From the IMG/VR virus record IMGVR_UViG_2565956726_000001: a stretch of 33,385 bases of DNA; one strand, written 5' to 3'. The position numbers and the translations under genes were made by a program. Under the pieces are notes generated by a model. That model saw only the letters and a program-made list of their open reading frames with translations. It was not told the origin of the DNA and ran no database searches. Source of the DNA: a virus (taxonomy: Duplodnaviria > Heunggongvirae > Uroviricota > Caudoviricetes). Position 1 is the first letter of the stretch. The number at the start of each line of letters is the position of its first letter. Shown piece by piece: positions 4,104-4,573 of the stretch.

Positions 4104-4573
4104 TTTGCTGCTCCTCATCATATCGACCCTGCAAGGTCGGTTGGTTTCTCCACAAAACAGAGAAGAACACCTGCGGTGGCAGCCGCCCGGATGGATTGGG
4201 TTATGAGCCCGTCGTCCGGTGATGCTCTTCTCTGTTTTGCAAAAAAGGACGGTACCAGCCGGAAGCAAGGGTACAAACTGGTACCGCCAGGACTACACAC
4301 AGCATAAAGTTGTGGTGCCGGGTGCCTCCCGGTGCCTGGCGAAGGTTGCACACCAGGCGGGTGGGTATCCACAGAAGGTCGACTGTCAGCCTCAACCTTA
4401 ACCCGCGTGCGCTGAGCCGCATTCACCACAACGCTAAGGATTCTCTCTGGTTGAAAATACTTAGCTGTTATGTGCCTGCTTTTAGCCACATCAGGCGAGG
4501 TGGACCTGGTTATTCCCCAACAACAAGGATTCGGTTAATCTGGATATCCCCAACAACAATAAGAGTATTCAAT

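Follow-up and report, generated by a model that had tools for sequence, protein, structure and literature searches.

The interval 4104–4573 of the viral record IMGVR_UViG_2565956726_000001 encodes on its minus strand a structured small-RNA locus, in which a pseudoknotted core of the STnc100/PasD type is joined to a DicF-like 3′ end. The window (the whole 33,385-nt stretch analysed here) is a lambdoid prophage of Escherichia coli, and its positions 3700–5100 are 100% identical to Escherichia phage PhiR49_1. The interval is bounded by the yfdP start codon (4103..4101, minus) and by the GTG start at 4574 of a rightward open reading frame (ORF) of 171 aa. None of the ORFs inside 4104–4573 matched Pfam or NCBIfam, in agreement with an earlier sequence-only reading that had described the interval as non-coding. 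The RNA is ~225 nt long, running from about 4470 to 4240 (minus), and consists of the following parts, from 5′ to 3′ and with the helices of the core given separately:

4433..4465, minus: P0 hairpin just 5′ of the core, GCUAAGUAUUUUC...GAGAAUCCUUAGC (inverted repeat; present in the minimum-free-energy fold)
4431..4309, minus: STnc100/PasD-type core, 123 nt, with five nested helices and an H-type pseudoknot (RF02076, model R1 and covariation)
4424–4431/4310–4317, minus: P1, the closing helix
4405–4420, minus: P2 hairpin with a bulged A and the pentaloop UCAGC (U-N-N-G-C in the family)
4393–4399 and 4342–4348, minus: pseudoknot strands AAGGUUG and CAACCUU, the latter inside the P4 loop
4353–4357/4335–4339, minus: P4
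4328–4332/4318–4322, minus: P5, with the loop AGGCA
4289..4308, minus: single-stranded, seed-like tail, unpaired in the minimum-free-energy fold
4240..4288, minus: intrinsic terminator with an 11-bp stem (4278–4288/4248–4258), a 19-nt loop and U6 at 4241–4246 (inverted repeat and fold)

An unannotated gap thus becomes a defined RNA locus, and three RNAs that have been studied separately, STnc100/PasD, DicF and RprA, are linked through shared modules. The STnc100 family is known (Rfam RF02076), and a 2026 preprint relates STnc100 to PasD; the preprint makes no mention of DicF, ymfH, e14, RprA or a pseudoknot, nor of links to ymfH or dicF–dicB. In the literature searched, we found no report of a sub-threshold early-operon variant, of an STnc100 core built together with a DicF/RprA tail or of the pseudoknot, and none that equates the element with ymfH or with the dicF–dicB spacer.

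Family assignment and covariation of the core

At gathering thresholds Rfam returned nothing in the interval. In an E-value scan of 900 nt, minus-strand positions 4462..4239 matched the whole STnc100 model RF02076 with 40.3 bits (E=3.8e-7); the covariance scan suggested by the sequence-only reading was empty at the first setting and yielded STnc100 at the second. A 22-mer from this match was found exactly in at least 120 IMG/VR viral contigs, and a covariance model, R1, was built from 40 representatives of the contigs that carry it. The sole R1 hit in the window is 4431..4309, with 82.7 bits, and among relatives the model gave 126 hits in 96 loci. Its canonical hits are RF02076 at 57–165 bits, often in tandem arrays adjoining phage tRNA genes. 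The apparent invariance of the 22-mer in loci L009–L128 is a consequence of their retrieval by that same 22-mer. The element shares with STnc100 the core helices and the conserved core sequence, backed by covariation, and it is prophage-borne and ends in an intrinsic terminator (11-bp stem and U6, 4241–4288).

The core is arranged as P1, P2, a variable region, P4 and P5, and the strand after P2 pairs with the P4 loop to form the H-type pseudoknot. Across 106 distinct relatives, the nested helices hold standard pairs in 94.3% of cells, compared with 78.5% in shuffles, and 21 of the 25 pairs have changed on both sides; the covariation score was 0.439, compared with 0.142 for shuffles and at most 0.097 with the partners slid. 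For the pseudoknot, column counts on the large model-based alignment are unusable because its loop columns are out of register, and an alignment-free test and a subfamily count were used instead. At least six contiguous pseudoknot pairs are present in 86% of 104 distinct members, in 61 sequence versions, compared with 23% when partners are mismatched and 12% when loops are shuffled. The subfamily alignment has 14 members, among them copies found without use of the 22-mer; here 92% of cells are paired, four of the five pseudoknot pairs have changed on both sides, and P5 covaries too. These data support every helix of the core and agree with the earlier suggestion of a structured RNA in this stretch, which proves to be conserved. 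Folded by minimum free energy, 4470..4236 (z = −3.4) forms P0, P1, P2, P4, P5 and the terminator, and in ST64B and phiES15 a hairpin of other sequence stands at the place of P0.

STnc100 units also occur as tandem arrays of 3–6 copies ~250 nt apart (4349–5513 and 8357–8555 in locus L063, 342–1038 in L024, 2325–3350 in L016 and 811–1488 in L040), and these arrays frequently adjoin phage tRNA gene clusters, isrI, isrK/C4 or sok RNAs. ARAGORN found no tRNA or tmRNA gene in the window. A tRNA/tmRNA-like gene was rejected as a candidate on this result; the adjacency of P1 and P5 and the CACCA motif resemble an acceptor/T arm only superficially.

The DicF-like 3′ end and the flanking sequence

Tail and terminator together (4247–4303) form a DicF-like module. 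Local alignment to nt 3–53 of K-12 DicF scored 33, compared with 17.8 ± 3.2 for shuffles, and none of 500 shuffles scored as high. The Rfam DicF model RF00039 gave 15.7 bits here (E=1.7), and it matched the e14 ortholog end to end with 28.5 bits (E=2.8e-4). The module resembles DicF in its size of ~53 nt, in its 5′ single strand followed by a long-loop terminator and in its place in a repressor-controlled early operon. ST64B, phiES15 and Kp4866-6 have other stems followed by the same U tract, and from these sequences the function of the terminator is conserved in other phages although its stem is not. The ftsZ-pairing loop region of DicF differs here; therefore, ftsZ targeting cannot be assumed.

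The tail also connects the element with RprA. The sequence UGCUGUGUGUAGUC at 4291–4304 is identical to nt 62–75 of RprA, the phiES15 tail has 19 nt in common with it (locus L007, 2727–2745), and exact 14–19-mers common with RprA occur only in the tails of this subfamily. From the sequences, RprA might be an internally deleted descendant of the phage RNA family or a donor to it. We also noted that the pre-terminator region of RprA (nt 60–78; RprA is 173–278 in locus L132) is identical to tails of the phage RNA subfamily, and that RprA stem-loop 2, GCAUGGAAAUCCCCUGAG, resembles, as judged by eye, the 5′ part of P1/P2 in canonical STnc100, GCAUGGUGAAUCCCCCUGAG.

The sequence on either side of the RNA contains the following features:

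5264..5237, minus: early-left promoter TTGACA-16-CATAAT (promoter scan, 11/12 matches)
5221..5264, minus: repressor-operator-like sites with the early-left promoter; the operators (5221–5257) overlap the promoter and lie outside 4104–4573
5115–5126, minus: rrn-type boxA GCTCTTTAACAA, the single exact match in the window, just after a hairpin downstream of the early-left promoter
4504..4573, strand not assigned: variable spacer and 5′ untranslated region (UTR) of the rightward gene, with the repeats described below
4466..4503, minus: conserved block 5′ of P0 (alignment and coverage breakpoints)
4147..4245, minus: long branched hairpin containing the inverted repeat 4153–4176/4216–4239 (fold and paired changes)
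4104..4146, minus: rest of the yfdP 5′ UTR, with the motif GUGGAGAAAC, a small hairpin at 4122–4141 and the Shine-Dalgarno sequence GAGGAG at 4111–4116 (sequence)

The sequence-only reading had described a 14-bp perfect inverted repeat in the interval. The repeat exists, and its perfect 14 nt were matched in none of 300 dinucleotide shuffles of the interval; its first arm, CAAAACAGAGAAGA, lies at 4153–4166, 9 nt from the 4144–4157 given for it, and the insert between the 14-nt arms measures 59 nt and not about 70 nt. The arms extend to 24 nt with 83% complementarity (4153–4176/4216–4239). Further palindromic segments were rightly predicted and correspond to the dyads 4433–4445/4453–4465 and 4250–4258/4278–4286. 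The description of the interval as GC-rich did not hold, with 52.8% G+C compared with 52.2% for the whole window, so that it exceeds only its immediate flanks. Rather than forming the heart of the element, the repeat belongs to a long hairpin that is separate from the core and lies directly after the terminator, within the yfdP 5′ UTR.

The long hairpin folds with −58.5 kcal/mol on the minus strand (z = −5.0) and −55.8 kcal/mol on the plus strand (z = −3.8), and at its base GGAGA is paired with the terminator U tract. Among five relatives, 11 of its 44 pairs have changed on both sides; the compensatory changes and the minus-strand G–U pairs were found in e14, ST64B, a Klebsiella phage and a viral contig. 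It could be argued that the dyad symmetry functions instead in the DNA, where it would bind a protein as a palindrome or mark a recombination or module-junction site, since mosaic breakpoints among phages lie at 4289, 4503 and 4557 and symmetric changes would also keep a protein-bound palindrome. However, all the G–U pairs are on the minus strand and would be A–C mismatches in the complementary strand, whose fold is also the less stable of the two. The interval lacks the repressor-operator motif, and nothing at the DNA level would explain a pseudoknot or the bulged P2. We regard a role of this kind as very improbable.

Upstream, the repressor gene (5304–5978, Peptidase_S24) and cro face each other, and the motif TGTACC-N6-RTACA occurs only between cI and cro and at 5221–5257, with a chance expectation of 0.53. 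The early-left promoter at 5237–5264 is the probable source of the minus-strand transcript. This position puts it ~770 nt upstream of the RNA and not within the interval. The sequence-only reading was right to assign the element to the minus strand and to the leftward early operon; as a 5′ leader it is not promoter-adjacent, as the convergent gene 4574–5089, flanked by an inverted 19-mer, lies between the early-left promoter and the RNA element. By consensus scan there is no sigma-70-like promoter in the interval. A weak CTGATG-16-CATAAC promoter, seen by eye, was not adopted because transcription from it would begin within the conserved P0 hairpin. In e14 and SfV, the shared module has its left boundary near 4503.

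The boxA at 5115–5126 is conserved in position in both SfIV and Klebsiella phage Kp4882-1, and may serve N-independent, Nus-factor-based antitermination. This bears on the first alternative offered by the sequence-only reading, that the element is itself a cis-acting processive antiterminator, put-like or nut, in a phage without N. Such a role would suit a structured, conserved RNA placed ahead of the terminators of a long operon, and no N-like protein could be recognised. The small ORFs that occupy the place of N here, in SfV and in phiES15 lack an arginine-rich N terminus and match no family, in agreement with the earlier statement that no N-like arginine-rich protein is encoded nearby, although this inspection was not exhaustive. 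However, model R1 had no match at E ≤ 1 in the complete genome of HK022, the phage whose put RNA acts as an antiterminator, so the put-like reading is unsupported. The put RNA measures ~73 nt, consists of two stems in a V shape and directly follows the promoter (PMC9378689), whereas the element here is a five-helix pseudoknotted RNA ~770 nt downstream. A put-like antiterminator was rejected on these two grounds, the missing HK022 match and the different architecture. For a lambda-type nut we looked for boxA and boxB inside the element and a cognate N, and found only the boxA at 5115–5126, outside the interval. Furthermore, the core of the Qin prophage lies after the DicF terminator, with no read-through transcript detected, many copies of the core occur in Q-antiterminated late regions, and the promoter-adjacent rrn-type boxA offers another route to antitermination. 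We therefore consider antitermination by the element improbable.

Several repeats surround the rightward gene. A direct repeat, TCCCCAACAACAA, is found at 4514–4526 and 4547–4559, and AATCTGGATATCCCCAACA at 4537–4555 is inverted relative to 5098–5116. This 19-nt inverted repeat, AATCTGGATATCC[C/A]CAACA (4537–4555 plus; 5098–5116 minus), brackets the 171-aa gene, whose product has a coiled coil and a CxxC...CxxC pattern; it sits in the 5′ and 3′ UTRs of the gene and would pair also in the antisense early-left transcript. The repeat looks like a cassette junction because SfIV and Kp4882-1 diverge exactly there. At the left end of the window, an ALIL pseudoknot (RF01497, 120 bits) was found at 12–128 (+), at the start of a 296-aa ORF (54–944). 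As ALIL is a frameshift signal of IS3-family insertion sequences (Rfam), an IS element lies at this end, where PhiR49_1 has its integrase.

Relatives, ymfH and the Qin prophage

In PhiR49_1, SfIV, SfV, ST64B, phiES15 and e14, the element invariably follows the repressor gene and precedes the early-left genes, which are yfdP-type, kil/gam or xis-int; in Qin, too, it follows the repressor gene, and in all of them it has the orientation of the early-left genes. In mEp460 and the Stx2c phages, the terminator and the hairpin are retained and the core is more divergent, with 27.9 bits. The small hairpin at 4122–4141 is retained with other sequences in ST64B, Kp4866-6 and locus L086. ST64B has in addition an isrK-family RNA in its early-right region (64 bits; 21–97, minus, in locus L005), so that at least two structured regulatory RNAs flank its immunity region.

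This variant of the element is found in 1,879 of 5,426 complete E. coli genomes. RefSeq labels at its place are ymfH, 'hypothetical protein' and frameshifted pseudogene, as the copy scores below Rfam's threshold. The annotation of the K-12 e14 prophage treats this element as a gene, ymfH (3042–3353 in locus L131), and the NCBI PGAP annotation gives the copy identical to the window as a frameshifted pseudogene. These annotations, together with a stop-free frame over the element of 138 codons here, 121 in K-12 and 93 in SfV, would be consistent with a small YmfH-like protein. However, 1-nt indels break the frame between copies that are 98% identical, and the frame is down to 36 codons in phiES15 and 28 in Kp4882-1, both of which retain the RNA core. 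The translation is of low complexity, it has no Pfam or NCBIfam family, and the substitutions track base-pairing and not codons. The protein-coding reading, of ymfH and of the other ORFs in the interval, was rejected on the indels, the collapse of the frame, the lack of a family and the pairing-led substitutions, and we give it hardly any credence. Like the put/nut and DNA-level readings, it is poorly supported.

For K-12 ymfH, to which no function is assigned, this suggests an RNA element and not a protein gene. In the e14 copy, the conserved P5 region has lost 1 nt and has a G-to-A substitution, and because of these two mutations the copy may be inactive. The gene belongs to the YmfT iModulon together with e14 early genes, with no constitutive promoter found for it, and, according to a preprint, overexpressing ymfH triggers the retron-Sen2 toxin RcaT. 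This triggering might be an RNA effect, and the reassignment of ymfH could bear on the retron-toxin screen.

The Qin prophage of K-12 has the same core between dicF and dicB (NC_000913 1,649,455–1,649,581; 2956–3082 in locus L148), with 65.6 bits, and dicB starts 27 nt after it. With the filters off, no second, degenerate core was found upstream of DicF in Qin. RNase III processing of a read-through RNA gives the 72-nt DicF (PMC5069750), and by our coordinates the 3′ end of this DicF maps to the base of the extended P1 of the Qin core; the papers on RNase III cleavage sites gave no data for this locus. The core is placed exactly at the reported dicBF RNase III processing, which provides a testable hypothesis for the role of the conserved core.

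Relatives of the element have been detected as RNAs. PasD, a relative of STnc100, is an Hfq-dependent small RNA by Northern blot and RIL-seq (PMC8550237), and the Hfq-bound EcOnc27 overlaps an STnc100 copy located 3′ of stx2 (PMC12711010). In EDL933, eleven STnc100 copies are transcribed, one of which (STnc100_4) was confirmed by Northern blot (PMC5331693).

Proposed role and comparison with known systems

The homology to STnc100/PasD and DicF fits the second alternative of the sequence-only reading, a processed small RNA. We lean, at slightly better than even confidence, towards a processed, Hfq-type small RNA from the early operon, whose terminator would also limit downstream expression. On loss of the repressor, transcription from 5237–5264 would read leftward through P0, the core, the tail and the DicF-like terminator, and most transcripts would stop at the terminator (4240–4288) to give an RNA of at least about 225 nt. 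If dicF of Qin is a guide, RNase III and/or RNase E would then trim this RNA through cuts at the base of P1 and in the flanking hairpins. The trimmed RNA would bind Hfq and act in trans via its tail. The core would be a portable 5′ cassette that helps the RNA to fold, to be processed and to be stabilised, and that phages may put before a small-RNA module, as here, or straight before an ORF (dicB, TerB-like). The yfdPQRST genes run leftward from the interval. The terminator and the long hairpin, which sequesters the U tract, would be a barrier, a processing site or a stability site for these genes, and would thereby limit and process read-through into them. For phage biology, this proposal points to a small RNA made early after induction, beside or instead of protein host-takeover functions (Kil, DicB).

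Several observations weigh against the proposal. The 40.3 bits of the STnc100 match do not reach the gathering score of 47, and the DicF-like module stays below the DicF gathering threshold of 48 bits. A transcript from the early-left promoter must cross a bidirectional terminator (5128–5147) as well as the convergent gene. The 19-nt loop of the RNA's own terminator is unusually long, and a simple terminator scan missed it. The duplex energy of the tail with ftsZ (−70..+40) is no better than that of shuffled tails (z = 0.27, with accessibility ignored). Furthermore, the unpaired nucleotides of the core are conserved more strongly than a stabilising structure would need. Finally, cores without a terminator lie 27–31 nt upstream of the start codons of dicB, of a TerB-family ORF (7377–7802, 31 nt after the core at 7223–7345 in locus L137) and of a LuxR-like (GerE) ORF (891–1451, 27 nt after the core at 746–863 in locus L142). 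A core directly upstream of ORFs is no less compatible with a cis-acting role than with a small-RNA scaffold.

These last observations fit a core that acts as a cis-regulatory leader, i.e. a riboswitch-like or protein-binding aptamer or a translational or stability element, with the terminator as its expression platform. On the whole we judge this unlikely, but it stays a serious rival because the core sits directly upstream of ORFs, with no terminator between. A pseudoknot with highly conserved unpaired nucleotides and variable peripheral stems would also suit such a leader, and 81% of the neighbouring downstream ORFs are co-oriented. Against it, there is no conserved antiterminator pairing between cores and terminators, and their distance and sequence vary freely. 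In an informal inspection of sequences and folds, mutually exclusive pairing of an aptamer and a terminator, as in a transcriptional riboswitch, was not shared across subfamilies. A riboswitch-style antiterminator was tried on the similarity between the 3′ strand of the canonical P2 and the terminator and was dropped, as this similarity is absent here and in other subfamilies. In addition, relatives accumulate as discrete Hfq-dependent RNAs, and tandem units of core, tail and terminator look like gene arrays.

A broader proposal, which we hold only tentatively and on balance doubt, is that the STnc100-type core is an autonomous mobile RNA domain with its own activity (an RNase III/RNase E processing-stabilising cassette, a self-cleaving ribozyme, or a protein or ligand site), placed before small-RNA seeds and before dicB/TerB. 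'STnc100', 'PasD', 'ymfH' and the dicF–dicB spacer would then be carriers of one module, and a large share of E. coli genomes would contain one unrecognised functional RNA module.

Among the known systems close to it, the processed small RNA that we favour resembles STnc100, PasD1 and PasD2. It has in common with them the core fold of P1, P2, P4 and P5, the conserved stretches GGUGAAU and CACCGGGAGGCACCCGGCACCA, the prophage location, a tail with an intrinsic terminator and an Rfam model matched end to end. It differs in that its score is below the gathering threshold (40.3 compared with 47 bits), in its P2, which is GCGGC/GC(A)CGC instead of the canonical CCCCC/GG(A)GGG, in its place in the early-left operon and not in the late/Q-stx region, and in its DicF/RprA-like tail. 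With DicF of Qin (RF00039) it shares a terminator-proximal module of similar sequence and architecture, a repressor-controlled early-left operon and flanking double-stranded processing structures, and in Qin an STnc100-type core lies directly 3′ of DicF. The order of core and DicF-like module is reversed here compared with Qin, the DicF model reaches 15.7 bits, and the ftsZ-pairing loop region is a different one.

RprA (RF00034) has the exact 14-nt match just upstream of the terminator (nt 62–75; 19 nt in phiES15), but it is a 106-nt small RNA of the core genome without a pseudoknotted core, and what we take to be its rpoS-pairing sequence is not present in the window element. HK022 put is likewise a cis-encoded structured RNA of the early operon in a lambdoid phage without an N-like protein, and differs in size, fold and promoter-adjacent position, with no detectable similarity to the window core. 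Finally, lambda nutL/N with tL1 corresponds in the early-left position just before the first terminator and in a boxA near the promoter; in the window, this boxA lies 650 nt outside the interval, and neither a boxB-like partner nor an N protein was identified.

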